Positions 14,523 through 34,943 of a stretch of DNA of 64,000 nucleotides are shown here, in pieces. The position numbers were made by a program, and so were the translations under genes. The number at the start of each line of letters is the position of its first letter. Position 1 is the stretch's first letter. The notes below the pieces were generated by a model. The model worked only from the letters and a program-made list of their open reading frames with translations. It did no database searches and was not told the origin of the DNA. Source of the DNA: a virus; IMG/VR virus record IMGVR_UViG_3300036857_000203, positions 1 to 64,000 of that record, one strand, 5' to 3'.

Positions 14523-14972
14523 CTAAGCAGTACGCTCACGCAGCATTGCCTCGATCTCATCACGCAGTTGCTTGCGCGTAATCCCTGGCATGATTTCTTC
14601 GATGATCACGTTGGTGATCTTCTCCGTCAGAAGGCGGAGCTGTTCGTCGCTGATTCGCGTCAGGCTCTTACCCTTGGCCTCGATCTTACGTGTGTGTGGA
14701 TCGTAGATCGCTTTGCTGTAGCCGACACGCACCTTGAACGCTTCCATGGCATGATCCTTGTCGAGAAATTCGTCCGAATTGTTTGCAACAAGATGAACGA
14801 GAGCCCAAAGATACCGTAGCAACTGGATGTTCTTCTCACGTCTGATGGTGGCAGTCACATCGCTGTCCATGGAGATGATATGCAGGTCCTCTTCCGCCAT
14901 TTCAGAGGACGGAAACAATCCGACCTCACCACGATAGTGGGCACGACGCTTTCGAAGAAAGGTTTCGATCAC
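14523..14972 (-). CDS. NinB/DUF1367-like recombination accessory protein
   Basis: GTG start after AGGAGG. RREKNIQLLRYLWAL..FKVRVGY..KSLTRISDEQ. Located downstream of the ERF gene. Confidence 0.6.
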   Translation of the reverse strand: MIETFLRKRRAHYRGEVGLFPSSEMAEEDLHIISMDSDVTATIRREKNIQLLRYLWALVHLVANNSDEFLDKDHAMEAFKVRVGYSKAIYDPHTRKIEAKGKSLTRISDEQLRLLTEKITNVIIEEIMPGITRKQLRDEIEAMLRERTA

Positions 14973-14987
14973 GTCGCGCCCCTCCTT

Positions 14988-15069
14988 GCCTGCCTCACCT
15001 CGCCGAGCCAAGCCACACCGAGGCCTGTCTTGCCGTGACGAGCCAAGCCGAGCCGAGCCGCGCCATGAA
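14988..15069 (-). ncRNA. Stand-alone GGC-NN guide unit B (14 pentamers plus GGCAGGC end)
   Basis: Intergenic minus-strand sequence AT GGC GC GGC TC GGC TC GGC TT GGC TC GTC AC GGC AA GAC AG GCC TC GGT GT GGC TT GGC TC GGC GA GGT GA GGCA GGC; same grammar as the main array. Confidence 0.8.
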
Positions 15070-21086: not shown

Positions 21087-21384
21087 CGAATTATTCGACT
21101 CTGACAAGCTCATCGCATGGCTGCGCCAGCAGCCGCCCGACGAGGAATACACCTGGAGCGATCCGGTGTTCTGCCTGATGGGGCGCTACGTCACCGACGT
21201 GGGGAGGCCCAAAGACCTCTACGGCTATAGCGACATGCCGCACTATCACGAGATTGCCGAGACCAAGCCGCACACGTTCGGAGCAGCGCTCCAGCGGGCC
21301 GAGGCACTCAAGGCGCTGCCGGCACCCGCGCTGCAGATCGAGGACAAGAGCCGCGAGCTGGTGACGGTGGAAGCGGCGGGATGA
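21079..21384 (+). CDS. Hypothetical protein
   Basis: GGAGG RBS; LIAWLRQQPPDEEY..C..TFGAALQRA. Confidence 0.6.
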   Translation: MPSELFDSDKLIAWLRQQPPDEEYTWSDPVFCLMGRYVTDVGRPKDLYGYSDMPHYHEIAETKPHTFGAALQRAEALKALPAPALQIEDKSRELVTVEAAG

Positions 21385-21860
21385 ACTTCTGGGCGGACCT
21401 TCAGTACGAACCGGAAACCGGTAAGTTCTACCGGCTGAAGTCCGCTCGCAGCGTGAAGGCTGGAGATGAGGCTGGTTGCCTGAACCCCTCAACTCAGTAT
21501 TGGATCATCCGCGTCGGAGGGAGAAGTTATCGCCGTGGGCGATTGGCATGGCTTTATATGACCGGTCGCTGGCCGATCGCGCAGATTGATCACATCAATG
21601 GGGTAAAGACTGATGACCGGATCGAGAATCTCCGAGAGGCGACTAATTCACAGAACGCCTTAAACAAACGACGGACACGCCAGAACACATCAGGTTTCAA
21701 GGGCGTCACTTGGCATAAACGCACTCGCCGCTGGCATGCTCAGATCAACATCGGCGGCAAGAATAAGTACATCGGTAGTTTCCGGTCTCCCGAGGAGGCC
21801 CATGACGCTTATTGGCGGGCTGCGCAGGATGGTCACGGTGCGTTTGGGAGGAAAGAGTGA
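21381..21860 (+). CDS. HNH-AP2 homing endonuclease
   Basis: IDHINGVKTDDRIENLREAT..SGFKGVTW..WHAQI..YIGSF..EEAHDAY. Confidence 0.9.
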   Translation: MNFWADLQYEPETGKFYRLKSARSVKAGDEAGCLNPSTQYWIIRVGGRSYRRGRLAWLYMTGRWPIAQIDHINGVKTDDRIENLREATNSQNALNKRRTRQNTSGFKGVTWHKRTRRWHAQINIGGKNKYIGSFRSPEEAHDAYWRAAQDGHGAFGRKE

Positions 21861-23467
21861 AGGAACTCAGACCTTACCAAGAAGACGCCCTCCAGGCGAT
21901 CCGGCAGACGGTAGGCCAGGGGGTGAAACGTCTCGTGTGTCAATCACCTACTGGGTCAGGCAAGACGTTGCTCGCGGCAACGATCGTTGACGGCGCGCTG
22001 CGCAAGGGCAACCGGCTGTGTTTCACGGTGCCGGCGATCGACCTTGTCGATCAGACCGTGGAGATGTTCTACGCCCAGGGCATCAAGGACGTCGGCGTCA
22101 TCCAGGCTGACCACCGGATGACCAACTGGCAGATGCCAATCCAAGTCGCGAGCATCCAGACTATCCGCTCGCGCGGAATCTATCCCGAGGCCCAGGTCGT
22201 CGTCATTGACGAGTGCCACCAGTTGCACAAGGCGCACGTCAAGTGGTTGAGCGATCCTGACTGGCAAGCAGTGCCGTTCATCGGGCTCAGTGCAACTCCC
22301 TGGACGCGCGGCCTCGGGAAGCACTTCTCGTCCTTATTGGTGATGTCTACGACGAAAGAGCTGATCGAGGAGGGGTACTTATCCAGGTTCCGGGTGTTTG
22401 CGGCGGATCATCCTGATCTGAGCAATGTTCCGACCATGGGCAAGACCGGCGATTACAAGGAAGCGCCGCTGTCCACCGTGATGAGCCAGCAGCAGCTGAT
22501 GGCGAACGTGATCGAGACCTGGAGGGTGCGCCACAACGCTGACAAGACGCTGTGCTTCGCAGTTGATCGTGCGCACGCGAAGTCGCTGCAAGAGCGCTTC
22601 CTCGACGCTGGCATCTCATGCGCGTACCAGGACGCCAACACACCGAGCGCAGAGCGTGCAGAGATCAAGAGGAGATTCCATAGTGGAGATTATCGTGTGG
22701 TTTGCAGTGTCGGAACATTGTGCACGGGCGTCGACTGGGACGTCAGATGTCTCGTCTTGGCAAGGCCGACGAAGAGCGAAATGCTTTACGTGCAAATCAT
22801 TGGTCGAGGCTTACGAACGGCTGAGGGCAAGACTCACCTGCTTGTTCTCGATCACACGTCCACAACGGAGCGGCTCGGGCTGGTGACCGACGTTCACCAC
22901 GATAGCTTGTCGATGGGCAAGCTCGATGAGAATAAGGCTGCTCCGCGTAAGCCGCCGCTGCCTCGACCCTGTCCGCAGTGCAGCTGCCTGATGGCGGTCG
23001 GTGTACGAGTCTGCGAGGAGTGCGGCTTCGAGCGCAAGATCGTGTCGAAGGTCACCGAGAGAGACGGTCAGCTGGTGGAGTTCGATGGGACGTTTCGCAA
23101 GAAGGGCAAGACTGATCCCAAGTTGCTGCCGTATTCGTTCGCGGAGAAGATCAAATACTTTCAGCAGCTGCGCGGCTATGAGGTAATGCGTGGCTATCGG
23201 AAAGGTTGGGCCGCGAATCAATTCCGGGAGAAGTTCAATGAAGGCTGGCCCCCGTGGTCCTGGAACGATCTCGCACCAATGGCGCCCGGCCCCGAAGTCA
23301 CGTCCTGGATCAAATCCCGACTCATTGCATGGGCACAGAGTAAAGCTCGAACTGCTAGCGCTGCAGCTGGCACTCCACGGTCCGACAGCGGTAACACCCA
23401 GCGCAGTTCGTATTCTGGCGCGAAGCCCGCTGTGGCTGGAGACGAGACTACTCCTCCGTGGGAGTAA
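21857..23467 (+). CDS. Superfamily 2 (DExH) helicase with C-terminal zinc ribbon
   Basis: LRPYQ, SPTGSGKT, VIDECH, LSATP, GVDWD, QIIGRGLR, CPQC..CEECG. Confidence 0.92.
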   Translation: MKELRPYQEDALQAIRQTVGQGVKRLVCQSPTGSGKTLLAATIVDGALRKGNRLCFTVPAIDLVDQTVEMFYAQGIKDVGVIQADHRMTNWQMPIQVASIQTIRSRGIYPEAQVVVIDECHQLHKAHVKWLSDPDWQAVPFIGLSATPWTRGLGKHFSSLLVMSTTKELIEEGYLSRFRVFAADHPDLSNVPTMGKTGDYKEAPLSTVMSQQQLMANVIETWRVRHNADKTLCFAVDRAHAKSLQERFLDAGISCAYQDANTPSAERAEIKRRFHSGDYRVVCSVGTLCTGVDWDVRCLVLARPTKSEMLYVQIIGRGLRTAEGKTHLLVLDHTSTTERLGLVTDVHHDSLSMGKLDENKAAPRKPPLPRPCPQCSCLMAVGVRVCEECGFERKIVSKVTERDGQLVEFDGTFRKKGKTDPKLLPYSFAEKIKYFQQLRGYEVMRGYRKGWAANQFREKFNEGWPPWSWNDLAPMAPGPEVTSWIKSRLIAWAQSKARTASAAAGTPRSDSGNTQRSSYSGAKPAVAGDETTPPWE

Positions 23468-23593
23468 TCTGTTCACCGGGGCCGAGATCAACATCTTGAT
23501 GGGCGGAGTGCACCCCCATGGCTGTTGCTGCTGGGGGTGCATCCGTCAGTTACGACAGCGGGTGATAGCCCACCGTCGCAGGCTGGAGGCTAA

Positions 23594-24152
23594 GCCTGCC
23601 AAGCCCGGCCAGGACTGAACGCACCAAGCCAAGCCCGGCCCTGCCTTGCCTCGCCTCGCCAAGCCCTAGCTAGCCGGGCCAGGACTGCCACGCCAAGCCA
23701 AGCCCTGTCAGGTCCTGGCGTGCCGTGCCTTGCCGTGCCGTGCCTGCCGGGCCAAGCCGTGCCTGTCCGAGGCCTGCCGCGTCTTGCCGGGCCTAGCCCT
23801 GCCGGGCCTGCCGCGACATGCCGCGTCTTGTCAGGTCGGGACATGCCGGGCCATACCGCGCCCGCCTTGCCTCAACTGCCGCGACATGCCGAGCCTGGAC
23901 CTGCCATGTCCAGCCGTCCGAGCCGGGCCAATGCCACGCCTGCCGAGCCAAGCCAGCGTCGGGCCAAGGCATGCCGTGACATGTCATCCACGTAGATGAC
24001 GTGCCTGCCATGCCCCGCCTTGCCGCGCACCGCCGGGCCGAGCCTCGCCGGGCCAAGCCCCGCCGCACCGGGCCTGCCGGGCCGCGCCATGCCGAGCCAC
24101 GTCCCACCGGGACGCGCCACGCCAAGCCGCGCCGAGCCTGCGTTACCGTGCC
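23594..24152 (-). ncRNA. GGC-NN pentamer array: eight 59-70 nt guide-like units plus a 19-nt remnant
   Basis: The minus strand reads GGC-NN with 5-nt period (minor GGT/GTC/GAC/GCC variants). Register is reset by a 4-nt GGCA step. Units: 24075-24138, 24006-24074, 23941-24005, 23877-23940, 23809-23876, 23745-23808, 23686-23744, 23616-23685. Starts about 8 nt after the stop codon of 24161-24691. Confidence 0.85.
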
Positions 24153-24160
24153 TAAGACTT

Positions 24161-24691
24161 CTACCGTTGGGCCGCAGCCCTCGGTCTCTCCCCCGGCCGC
24201 CGACGCGGCGGCTGCGGGCGAGATGGCGGTTTCTTCTCGTCGTCTTTGCCAAGCTCATTCACGATGCTGTCGAGCCGGGCGTAGAACTCGCTTTCCAGTT
24301 TGGTTGTTCGCGCATGACCATGTGCATCGACCAGCAAGTTGCGGACTCGATCCATGAGCACTGCCAGGATGCGCGAGTTCTTCTCCTTCGTTGCACTCGC
24401 AACATCGACGTACGTGCCGACCGCCGACCTGGGATCGGGGTCGTGCCGATATCGCGGAAGCACGCGCGAGAGATCGATGTCGTTGATCTCGGGACGGGGA
24501 CAGCTACGGATGATCTCCTCGGCACGCGCCAAGAGATACCTTCGATGAACTCGCGCCGGGTCCCAATCGAACAACTTGTTCAACTCGCTGTTCTGATCCC
24601 TCCCCGCCTCCACGACATCGCGTGCGTTGATCGTGCCGTTACCGTCGCGCAGCTCATCGAGTGCGGTGATCTGCTCGGTCGTAAGATTCAT
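24161..24691 (-). CDS. Accessory protein of the RAMP-array locus (unknown function)
   Basis: Overlaps the RAMP stop codon by 4 nt. GTINARDVVEAGRDQNSELNKLFDWD..YLLARAEEIIR. Confidence 0.8.
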   Translation of the reverse strand: MNLTTEQITALDELRDGNGTINARDVVEAGRDQNSELNKLFDWDPARVHRRYLLARAEEIIRSCPRPEINDIDLSRVLPRYRHDPDPRSAVGTYVDVASATKEKNSRILAVLMDRVRNLLVDAHGHARTTKLESEFYARLDSIVNELGKDDEKKPPSRPQPPRRRPGERPRAAAQR

Positions 24692-25506
24692 GTGCTCGCT
24701 CCTGGTTGCTCGGGTTGATCGCTTGAACGAGAGCGCGTTACGGGATCGCGCCGCCGCATCACCTCAGCGTCGTACCAGCCCAGCAAGTCGGCGCTCTCTT
24801 CGTCAGCGAACGATGGATCATCGAGCGCTGCGAGCTGTGCCTCGCGCCCCTCTTTCTCGACAATGTCCATCCATTCGGGATGATCGTGGCTCACGACATC
24901 CCAGGAGCCGAAAGAGAATGCGCCGCGTTCCTGGCGCCCGTCGCCGACACCGACAATCATGCCGGCGTTCATCGCTAGATTGAGCACGTCGTCGAGCGTG
25001 ATCAGGTCGCGCACATAGCGAAAGCTCATGGAGCACGCCCAGCGCGGGAAGTAGGCGCGCGTGCGGATGTCGGGCGTCTTGGCGATGCCGGCCTGCCGCA
25101 CCATCGACATGTGCAGCTGCGGGATGCCGTACAGGAAGATCGTCGGCGTGGTTACGGTAATGAGCCGGCCCACTTCCGCTCGTGTTGCGCCCGGCGTGTC
25201 GACTGCCGCCTGGGCGAGCGCTTTCTTGATGCTGTTGCCGGGGAGGTGGACGGCGGCTGGCGCATCGGCGTCGCGGCAGCGATAGACCGAGGCGCGGAAC
25301 TCTTCGAGCGGATCGTGCTTGAGGGTGGCTGCGCGTGCTGCCCGGTTGGGAGCGCGTGGGGGGAGGAGTATCTGGCGCTTCGCCTTCTCGGTGAAGCGGT
25401 TCATCACGAGCGCGCTTGTGCCCAGGAGATGGAGAGTCGCGCCCACCATCTGCAATCGACTGATGAGCGGGCGCTCCGCACCAGTCTGCTTTGCCGCTTT
25501 CGCCAT
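24688..25506 (-). CDS. Cas7/Csm3-like RAMP-fold RNA-binding protein
   Basis: RAMP hallmarks: N-terminal strand ATLHLLGTSALVM, HLPGNSIKKAL (cf. IPGSSLKG of Csm3/Cmr RAMPs), a long insertion MVRQAGIAKTPDIRTR, and a C-terminal Gly-rich loop GMIVGVGDGRQERGAFSFGSW. Confidence 0.75.
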   Translation of the reverse strand: MAKAAKQTGAERPLISRLQMVGATLHLLGTSALVMNRFTEKAKRQILLPPRAPNRAARAATLKHDPLEEFRASVYRCRDADAPAAVHLPGNSIKKALAQAAVDTPGATRAEVGRLITVTTPTIFLYGIPQLHMSMVRQAGIAKTPDIRTRAYFPRWACSMSFRYVRDLITLDDVLNLAMNAGMIVGVGDGRQERGAFSFGSWDVVSHDHPEWMDIVEKEGREAQLAALDDPSFADEESADLLGWYDAEVMRRRDPVTRSRSSDQPEQPGAST

Positions 25507-25582
25507 ATTGAGGGTTCCTGTGATCGAGTGTATATAGAACAGGCGGATGCCTATCCAACGCAGACTATATCAGGAAACTACG

Positions 25583-25792
25583 ATGCACAAGCGGGAAGAG
25601 TCGGCGAACCTGAACGAGGGACTACGCGCCGCGATCGACGCTTGCGGTTCGCGCTATGCCCTGGCCAAGCGGCTCGGCCTGACACCGGTAGCAGTGCTTG
25701 ATTGGTGGCGCATCCCGGCGGACTTGGTGGTCGAGGTGGAGAGAGTATCGGGCGTGCCCCGCGAGAGGCTACGCCCGGAGCTGTACTACTAA
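25583..25792 (+). CDS. Cro/YdaS-like HTH regulator
   Basis: AIDACGSRYALAKRLGLTPVAVLDW..IP..VERVSGVPRERLRPELY; divergent from the RAMP gene. Confidence 0.85.
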   Translation: MHKREESANLNEGLRAAIDACGSRYALAKRLGLTPVAVLDWWRIPADLVVEVERVSGVPRERLRPELYY

Positions 25793-26337
25793 CGCCCGCG
25801 CAGGAAGCGCTCAGCCTCGCGACCGGTGAGCGGCGGCTTGCGCAGCTTGCCGGTCAGCGCGGCTTGCTTGTGCTCCTCACGCACCCTACGCTTCTCCTTC
25901 TCCACGAGCCGCCTCTGCTCGACAGTGGGAGCTTTGTTGTGACTGTTAGCGACGGCGTAGGCCGCCTCAGCGACATCCTTGGCGAGAGGGCTCCGCTTGA
26001 GATAGGTGGGAATCTCAAGCTCATCCAGCTGACCAGCAAGTGGTTTGTCGCCGGGCTTCTCCTGCACGACGGGCGCGTCGTTAACGTCGCTCCGATCCTC
26101 GGCTACATGCACGGCTGGACCCGGCAGCGGGTCCTTCGCTACGCCCGCATCCGGCACTGGACGGCCACAGAGCTTTGAAGCTTGCCGCAGCCTAAGCCGG
26201 TCGAGCGTCTTGCGCAGACCAGGAAGCTTGACCTCGGCATTCACCAGGGCCGCGAGCGCGCCGTTGCGTTGCATCTCCAGGCGAGCGACTTGGGCACGCA
26301 GAAGGCGGATGTCTCTTTGGAGCTTTGTCTCTTTCAT
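25789..26337 (-). CDS. Hypothetical protein
   Basis: MKETKLQ.. after CATGAAAGG and a strong promoter; contains LEIPTYLKR. Confidence 0.6.
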   Translation of the reverse strand: MKETKLQRDIRLLRAQVARLEMQRNGALAALVNAEVKLPGLRKTLDRLRLRQASKLCGRPVPDAGVAKDPLPGPAVHVAEDRSDVNDAPVVQEKPGDKPLAGQLDELEIPTYLKRSPLAKDVAEAAYAVANSHNKAPTVEQRRLVEKEKRRVREEHKQAALTGKLRKPPLTGREAERFLRGR

Positions 26338-33551: not shown

Positions 33552-33640
33552 GGCAAGGCAAGGCGCGGCAGGGCACGGCCCGGCGATACAGGGCTGGGCC
33601 CGGCACGGCGCGCCTCGGGGGGGGGTCATGCCCCCTCCCC
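33552..33640 (+). ncRNA. Stand-alone GGC-NN guide unit C (13 pentamers) followed by a G/C hairpin
   Basis: GGC AA GGC AA GGC GC GGC AG GGC AC GGC CC GGC GA TAC AG GGC TG GGC CC GGC AC GGC GC GCC TC, then G9-TCATG-CCCCCTCCCC. Confidence 0.8.
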
Positions 33641-34336
33641 AATATCGAGCTTGTCTTCACCCCAGGGCAGGCCATAGCGGACGGCGCAGGCCTTGCCGTA
33701 GCCTACTGCGAGGCTCTTCTTGGCGGTGGGGCTGTCGCCGCCCAGGGCAAGGTTGCAGAACACGCAGCGGCCGGTGAGCGTGGCGCTCTCCTTGGCGACC
33801 TTGGCCGGCTCGCAGGCGAACTCACGCAGGCGCTTGGCGATGGCCTCGGTGCGACCGTTGGCAACGCGCGCCGGCTGATACTGCCCATCGACCGTTACGC
33901 GGCCCAGCCACACGCGGCGCGGGCCCCAGTCGCCTTCCTCGAAGACGTCATTGTCCTTCACATCGATGCTGCCGGGGACCTTCGCCTTGGCGCTGGCGAT
34001 CGAGAGGCGAACGACGGTGTCGGCCTCGGGGACGGCCAGGGTGATGGCGGGCTTCTTGAGGCTGACCTTGGCGCGGTCGAACAACTGCAACACGCCGCCC
34101 AGGTCGCCAACGGCTTGAATGGCCTGCGCGGGCTTGGCCTGGGGCGCTAGCGACCAGACCTGATCGCCGTAGCGGTTCTTGCCCTGGTAGGTACCCAGGG
34201 TGACTTCCTGGGTGCGGCCGTCGCGCTTGTAGACGATGACGGTGCCACCGGGCTCGGCGTTGGCGGCCTTGTCCTCGGGGATGCGAACGCCCCAGGTGGT
34301 GGCGTCGAGCTTCACGTAGGAGGTCGGGAAAGACAT
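33626..34336 (-). CDS. DUF6011-like Zn-finger early protein
   Basis: C-terminal GRCVFCNLAL..SLAVGYGKACA..LPWG; start MSFPTSY after CATGAAAGG. Confidence 0.75.
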   Translation of the reverse strand: MSFPTSYVKLDATTWGVRIPEDKAANAEPGGTVIVYKRDGRTQEVTLGTYQGKNRYGDQVWSLAPQAKPAQAIQAVGDLGGVLQLFDRAKVSLKKPAITLAVPEADTVVRLSIASAKAKVPGSIDVKDNDVFEEGDWGPRRVWLGRVTVDGQYQPARVANGRTEAIAKRLREFACEPAKVAKESATLTGRCVFCNLALGGDSPTAKKSLAVGYGKACAVRYGLPWGEDKLDIGEGA

Positions 34337-34375
34337 GTTCAGTGGCCTTTCATGGGTGAGAGCGACAACGGGATA

Positions 34376-34404
34376 CACGTATAGCACCGCAATGCATCTG
34401 TCAA
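34376..34404 (-). promoter_or_regulatory. Sigma70-like early promoter
   Basis: TTGACA followed by GCTATACG at promoter spacing; head of the leftward early operon. Confidence 0.55.
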
Positions 34405-34943
34405 TGGGTGGATTACGGTAATCGTCGCTGCGGTGCAGCAATAAGTTCCTGGGTGGGGATAGTGGGGATAGCGCGCAAAGGGCTTCCCGAATCAGACGCA
34501 ATCGCTTAAACGCATCAAGCCCCACAAGGATCGCTCCCTGCAGGGCTTGGTTTATGTCCGCGAGCTTGGTCGGCGCTCGGACACAAGGTCTGAAACACAA
34601 GACCTTGTACTCCGCCCCCCGACCAACAGCAAGCGGTAGATGCGCTCGATGGAACGCGACCATCGAGGCGGTGCGCTCTCAACGTTGCCGGAACCGCACC
34701 TTCCGGCACGCTAGCGGAGCATTGGCGGTGCCTCGCGCGCGCGTGCGCGGCAGCGGATATCTGGAGAGAAAGAGAGGGGTCTACCGAGTAGAGCACTATC
34801 TCTCACACTCACTGTTACCTTTGGATAGAACAGAAAGGTTCTTAGTAATTAGAAAGAATCTTTCTAGAACATCTAAGGAAGATAGGAAGAGGAGAGAATG
34901 GTGGTAAGGCACTAGAGGGGCAGAACCGGGTTGTAACAACTGA

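Follow-up and report, generated by a model that had tools for sequence, protein, structure and literature searches.

A probable VIPR guide unit beside a phage helicase gene fits the helicase alleles of relatives better than the phage's own

A repeat unit lying beside the gene for a superfamily 2 helicase in a phage-like genome corresponds to a conserved C-terminal segment of that helicase when its dinucleotides are read with one base skipped per step at the wobble position, and among helicase alleles it agrees better with those of related phages than with that of the phage itself. The unit stands at the helicase end of an array of GGCNN pentamers and probably represents a single guide RNA unit (vrRNA) of a VIPR system carried by the phage. 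The array is a VIPR locus, an element of a known kind and not a new one, compared here with published Vipr by description. Its RAMP/Cas7-like gene, small gene and GGCNN pentamer array form a conserved module.

VIPR (Viral Interference Programmable Repeat) systems comprise a RAMP protein (Vipr) with an RRM core, a G-loop and a thumb, a vap gene (vap1-6 are named) and vrRNAs made of GGY/NN pentamers, and they are divided into types I-VII. According to the texts of two bioRxiv preprints of 2026 (10.64898/2026.04.26.720920; 10.64898/2026.10.15.759431), the GGY scaffold is bound by the Vipr protein, which presents the NN bases for pairing; dsDNA recognition follows a 1-nt skip rule in which the wobble base is passed over, works on either strand and requires no PAM. 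The same texts describe vrRNAs as tandem GGY/NN (YNNGG) pentamers, 9-16 per guide, which repress transcription of competing mobile elements (phages, satellites), and report solo vrRNAs as well as guides aimed at other VIPR systems. A natural target is defined there by an NN match of at least 80%; self-match scores are lower than non-self ones, and no self matches reach this value (10.64898/2026.04.26.720920; 10.64898/2026.10.15.759431). The text of the first preprint also states that perturbed NN pairing abolished silencing and that internal degeneracy is frequent in working vrRNAs (10.64898/2026.04.26.720920).

The DNA analysed here (the window) covers the initial 64 kb of a phage-like genome that comes from a soil metagenome and measures 72,435 bp, with 63.6% G+C. 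The period-5 signal of the window peaks at 23551-24151, and the array region, about 540 bp long, has the convergent helicase gene on one side and two minus-strand genes on the other (Table 1). By segmentation, the pentamers read NNGCC on the plus strand, which is GGCNN on the minus strand, and they are organised on a GGC scaffold into eight higher-order units of 59-90 bases, with 11-18 pentamers per unit. The units abut at 4-mer junctions (TGCC on the plus strand, GGCA on the minus strand) at 23686, 23745, 23809, 23877, 23941, 24006 and 24075. We take the array strand as minus because all the guide units called in homologous loci (227 in 45 loci, mostly of 8-16 pentamers, GGYNN with GGCA junctions) share the strand of the RAMP gene (227/227). 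Several pentamers of the units have degenerate scaffolds, GTC, GAC and ACC among them, and in the sixth unit the scaffold is disrupted around a short inverted repeat (GTCATC ... GATGAC, 23960-24000). Right after the helicase stop and before the array there is a GC-rich hairpin (23499-23545), which received no call in a consensus scan and which may be a terminator or the end of the array transcript. A promoter/terminator scan of 23300-25800 gave no usable calls, and an Rfam gathering scan and a tRNA scan of the window gave no matches. A glycine-rich coding repeat outside the window (G000 66300-66800) was rejected as a pentamer array; it has many GGC triplets, but its period is 3.

Table 1. Features of the locus and of the solitary units, in window coordinates
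Feature	Positions	Strand	Basis or remark
Array of eight abutting GGCNN guide units, staggered	23596-24138	-	Segmentation; transcribed strand inferred
Putative guide unit (vrRNA) closest to the helicase; unit 8 of the first-pass annotation, extended leftwards	23596-23685	-	18 pentamers
Putative guide unit closest to vap/vipr; dinucleotides match the RAMP gene itself	24075-24138	-	
vipr-like gene, RAMP/Cas7-like protein, 272 aa, phrog_4652	24688-25506	-	Fold model, family search
vap-like accessory gene, 176 aa, between RAMP gene and array	24161-24691	-	tblastn
Superfamily 2 helicase gene (ResIII, DEAD, Helicase_C domains), convergent with the VIPR operon	21812-23467	+	
The phage's own mismatched helicase allele of the guide-encoded site, LPYSFAEKIKYFQQLR, aa 439-454	23126-23173	+	
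Own vipr site matched by unit 24075-24138	25175-25209	-	Sense frame 0, AAVDTPGATRAE
Solo guide unit between ERF gene and NinB/Orf-like gene	14995-15059	-	13 pentamers
Solo guide-like unit, GGCNN on +, antisense to the surrounding operon	33552-33609	+	About 12 pentamers

What do the two minus-strand genes encode? The larger one is without a Pfam family and has 201 database relatives, none with a functional name among the 120 listed. The AF2 model of its product (pLDDT 84.6, pTM 0.78) matches 44 PDB chains in Foldseek at E of 1e-3 or lower, with TM 0.3-0.5; all of the matches listed are chains of type III Csm/Cmr or type VII complexes, or Cmr6. Judged by their lengths, the matched chains of about 200-235 residues are Cas7-type backbone subunits, Cmr6 being the only one listed by name. 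A glycine-rich loop, GVGDGRxEKG, is invariant in the alignment of the RAMP protein (A1). On the strength of the model, the protein is predicted to have the RAMP fold required of Vipr. Local blastp relates the gene to gp51 of phage Saal, which lies directly downstream of the Saal array, and to an ORF adjoining the array of contig L019. In 32 locus rows, tblastn places homologues of the smaller, vap-like gene immediately downstream of the RAMP gene. Its product has neither a Pfam nor a PHROG family and gives no Foldseek match at E of 1e-3 or lower; the best VIA-align hit (Z 5.8) falls on a helical hairpin, and residues 1-100 give weak winged-helix-like rows.

The resemblance to VIPR, as far as the preprint texts describe it, extends to most of what can be compared. 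The locus is phage-borne and minimal, with one RAMP gene and one small accessory gene, and the array occupies intergenic DNA flanking vipr, in the order vipr, 176-aa gene, array, all on one strand. The guides have about 11-18 GGCNN repeats and skip 1 nt on the wobble base; they find matches on either strand, one of them matches vipr itself, solo guides occur elsewhere in the genome, and self matches are lower than matches to relatives. The junctions of abutting units fit the '1-nt overlapping staggered array' of the legend to fig. S18. All features measured here fit the published description save the 80% target criterion, the best target here being 12/16 (75%). Two further differences concern the characterised systems (phage SUSP1 and a P. 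fulva prophage). These have vrRNAs of about 100 nt with a conserved 3' tail, whereas there is no tail here, and their targets are satellites or resident prophages, whereas the decodable guides here correspond to replication and recombination genes that are homologous to the phage's own. Another comparison is with the backbones of type III and type I CRISPR complexes (Csm3, Cmr4 and Cas7 filaments on crRNA), which share with this locus the RAMP fold, the glycine-rich loop and a guide-target pairing periodically interrupted by the backbone subunit. The step differs: it is 5 here, with two paired bases, and 6 with five paired in the CRISPR backbones. Unlike CRISPR, the locus has no Cas10, Cas5, Cas6, Cas1-Cas2, repeat-spacer array or adaptation module.

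The match to the helicase starts from a first-pass annotation, which had read 13 dinucleotides from 23616-23685, named this the array unit nearest the helicase and counted 7/13 dinucleotides (17/26 nt) in agreement with the phage's own helicase at 23126-23164. The segmentation places the unit where it was said to be; its 14 pentamers yield the same 13 dinucleotides on the minus strand, followed by a 14th, CA, and both counts were reproduced, that of the nucleotides by hand. The helicase codons at this site are LPYSFAEKIKYFQ, in frame 0. A scan of the 13 dinucleotides against both strands of the 72,435-bp genome finds seven matches only at 23126 and six at three positions. With 14 dinucleotides the site scores 8/14, a value that 29 of 1500 order-shuffles get anywhere in the genome (P 0.019). 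The pentamers run on to the left of the annotated start, to 23596, and the next two dinucleotides match the helicase as well. Over these 16 dinucleotides the score is 10/16, which none of 2000 shuffles reaches (shuffle maximum 9), and the match of the unit to the phage's own helicase is beyond chance. It is confined to the first 16 dinucleotides of the 18-pentamer unit. Outliers appear at a target spacing of 3; at spacings of 2, 4, 6 and 7 no unit has any. Sense frame 0 holds for each of the own-genome sites (3/3), in the helicase gene, the RAMP gene and a phrog_4046 gene, and the skipped base is therefore the wobble base; the wobble-skipping reading of the first-pass annotation is the rule of the VIPR preprint texts, with two bases paired and one skipped at the wobble base. 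No own-genome match attains 80% NN, the maxima being 10/16, 9/12, 8/12 and lower.

But which helicase does the unit fit best? The relatives surveyed were 30 viral loci, 78 metagenome loci and 14 homologues from a protein search. The closest viral relative among the 30 loci (L003), whose helicase is 74% identical, and a metagenome contig (L116) both carry LPYTYEEKRRFYAQ(LR) at the homologous site. The unit is matched by these alleles at 10/14 and 12/16, where the phage's own allele scores 8/14 and 10/16, and the maximum among shuffles across the locus set of 461 kb is 7-8 of 14. Besides L116, three more of the 78 metagenome loci score 9/14. Counted as amino-acid compatibility, seven of the 14 protein homologues exceed the own allele (9/14), six of them at 11/14 and one at 10/14, and none of the 14 is fully compatible. 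The proposal that the unit fits a homologue of the helicase rather than the neighbouring allele is thus borne out by L003, L116 and these seven proteins. The particular allele that had been predicted, LPYSF[DE]EK[SR]RFFA, is absent from the 30 viral loci, the 78 metagenome loci and the 14 protein homologues, and the same set holds no helicase target at 80% NN or more, the best being 75% (12/16). At the serine codon whose TCG spelling, in place of AGY, the first-pass annotation put forward as a possible escape from a wobble-skipping guide, two relatives (L128, L129) have an AGC serine and the best-matching alleles have threonine. By hand reading, the guide code is a mosaic: where the own allele and that of L003 differ, it agrees with one of the two at the amino-acid level.

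L003 is collinear with the genome over 13.9-34.6 kb and is without vipr, vap, array and solo unit; VIPR-less kin therefore exist. Contigs with the L003-type helicase allele are present in the same three soil metagenome runs, one of which may be the sample that yielded the phage. Between the phage and L003, the helicase target is among the 4-7% most diverged 14-codon windows, a value that is suggestive only, and the NinB window is unremarkable. A gene for an HNH_3 and AP2 endonuclease overlaps the start of the helicase gene (21381-21860, plus strand) and has no counterpart in L003; it is a further insertion beside the helicase and possibly a homing endonuclease.

Three other units can be decoded. 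The unit at the vap end of the array matches the phage's own RAMP gene at 9/12, as high as only one of 1500 shuffles, and in the homologue P0003 the corresponding segment, AAIDTPGATKAE, agrees with it at 11/12 at the amino-acid level, against 9/12 for the own protein (hand count). The solo unit between the ERF and NinB-like genes, part of a solitary array spanning about 14978-15064, scores 9/13 against the NinB-like genes of L003, L004/L128 and L121 and, by hand count, 6/13 against the phage's own NinB-like allele at 14751-14789. A longer, 18-dinucleotide version of it (14971-15065) has no match in the genome, the best score being 7/18; at the place of this unit, L003 has no gap. The third, on the plus strand, scores 8/12 in frame 0 at 34079-34114 of the adjacent phrog_4046 gene (33626-34663), a value reached by 10 of 500 shuffles. 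The decodable guides, four with that for the helicase, lie about 0.2-1.1 kb from the phage's own mismatched allele. For the six inner units of the array, neither this genome nor the roughly 1.8 Mb of related loci contains a match above shuffles, and in the same 1.8 Mb no target at 80% NN or more was found for any of the ten units.

Outside this genome, 69 of the 80 viral loci in which the RAMP gene has a homologue also have a period-5 array, mostly 0.4-2 kb downstream of that homologue. Among 30 control loci chosen by their helicase the array occurs once, and that locus also has a RAMP-gene homologue. Scanned against 1.3 Mb, the 226 units of other loci gave four matches at 80% or more, and shuffles gave five; for 192 distinct units from 45 other loci, partial matches to the own locus are not enriched, and the layout of a guide beside the own allele is not general in this sample. 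A 13-repeat unit common to L056 (1573), L057 (7456) and L058 (1668) scores 10/13 at L019 +4713, L031 +6121 and L034 -7645, which may be a conserved target gene. The cluster F mycobacteriophages Saal and Donkeykong, whose gp51 and gp49 are RAMP-gene homologues, carry GGCNN arrays with a TGCC periodicity of about 59 nt. That of Saal (NC_023580 36573-36822; L002 3011-3261) lies directly upstream of gp51 and is unannotated, and its units have no match above shuffles in the Saal genome; that of Donkeykong (NC_051648; L001 3001-3348) lies directly upstream of gp49, and a hypothetical CDS, gene 48, is annotated across it. The Tweety gp54 repeat of cluster F phages was rejected as a related array, as it is a 12-bp tetrapeptide repeat. 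The array of L019 (1-744) has at least 14 units, each of TGCC plus 8-11 pentamers, and extends past the start of the contig; it adjoins a RAMP-gene homologue, 5 kb from a relative of the helicase, and its units have no match above shuffles in 557 kb. RAMP-gene homologues annotated as hypothetical are also present in the Gordonia phages Pipp, ODay, Ecliptus and UmaThurman (28-30% identity, E 2e-12 to 5e-11; GenBank MN234179 32495-33061, MW534375 10406-10933, NC_031249 32750-33316). The closest isolate-phage match is an AAA ATPase with 40% identity to cluster O mycobacteriophages.

Could the whole pattern be a chance resemblance in a GC-rich microsatellite or a low-complexity coding region? Long ORFs do cross the array on both strands, and the GenBank record of Donkeykong annotates a gene over the equivalent stretch, which in Saal is unannotated. 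The shuffle tests speak against chance, the 4-mer junctions interrupt every reading frame, and the array is tightly linked to the RAMP gene and on its strand; we give this explanation next to no credence. A more serious question is whether the guides are alive. They might be relics of past conflicts or drifted copies with no current target, the similarity to helicase and other genes being a matter of history, and this would agree with the lack of a match at 80% or more for any of the ten units and with the degenerate scaffolds of several pentamers (GTC, GAC, ACC). Yet the NN positions vary along a scaffold that has been preserved for 540 bp, 69 of 80 loci retain the module, the target set scanned was small (about 1.8 Mb), and working vrRNAs are often internally degenerate according to the text of one preprint (10.64898/2026.04.26.720920). 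Decay seems to us an unlikely account.

About equally improbable is that the guides are really directed at the neighbouring genes of the phage itself (helicase, vipr, NinB-like, phrog_4046) and tune its replication and recombination genes as well as the VIPR operon. The position of the four decodable units, 0.2-1.1 kb from the own copy of the matched gene, is what such autoregulation would lead one to expect, and the own matches of 62-75% are far above shuffles. Relatives score higher than the phage itself, however: 12/16 versus 10/16 in the helicase, 9/13 versus 6/13 in the NinB-like gene and, at the amino-acid level, 11/12 versus 9/12 in vipr. The preprint texts also report no self matches at 80% or more and a loss of silencing when the NN pairing is perturbed.

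Our preferred reading is that the unit beside the helicase acts on relatives. The array would be transcribed on the minus strand together with vipr and vap, and the unit would pair with the helicase gene of a close, VIPR-less relative on its template strand and silence that gene during co-infection, the own allele presumably being spared by its mismatches (6/16 dinucleotides). L003 itself may not be a target of this unit, because perturbed NN pairing abolished silencing in the preprint. The placing of each decodable guide beside the phage's own mismatched target allele may be a new feature; term searches of the texts of the two preprints brought up no mention of a guide-allele linkage (10.64898/2026.04.26.720920; 10.64898/2026.10.15.759431). 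A linked guide-plus-immune-allele arrangement is supported, though unproven, because all four decodable guides adjoin the phage's own allele. It is conceivable, if somewhat doubtful, that guide and immune allele are linked poison-antidote cassettes against the sensitive alleles of co-infecting kin; by silencing these, the cassettes would, we propose, drive their own inheritance. A less likely alternative to the poison-antidote reading is that the adjacent gene serves as the template for new guides.

Homing-endonuclease marker exclusion occurs in co-infecting T-even phages. There, the weapon against the relative's allele adjoins the carrier's own resistant allele, and therefore both are inherited together. 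By analogy, poison-antidote cassettes of guide and immune allele would be the RNA-guided counterpart of this exclusion; marker exclusion works by DNA cleavage, whereas RNA-guided repression would be at work here, and the likeness is an inferred one.

The locus adds an uncultured soil phage of high GC content to the carriers of VIPR systems, and the published skip rule proved recoverable from raw sequence, as the first-pass annotation did so without tools. The module in cluster F mycobacteriophages and, at the gene level, its counterpart in Gordonia phages are found in phages that can be grown and tested in the laboratory. Templating from the adjacent gene, if true, would be a first hint of where vrRNAs originate. 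If confirmed, guides directed at conserved replication and recombination genes of close kin would extend the known use of VIPR to competition among kin, and the layout of a guide beside an immune allele would offer a testable model for how guides persist.
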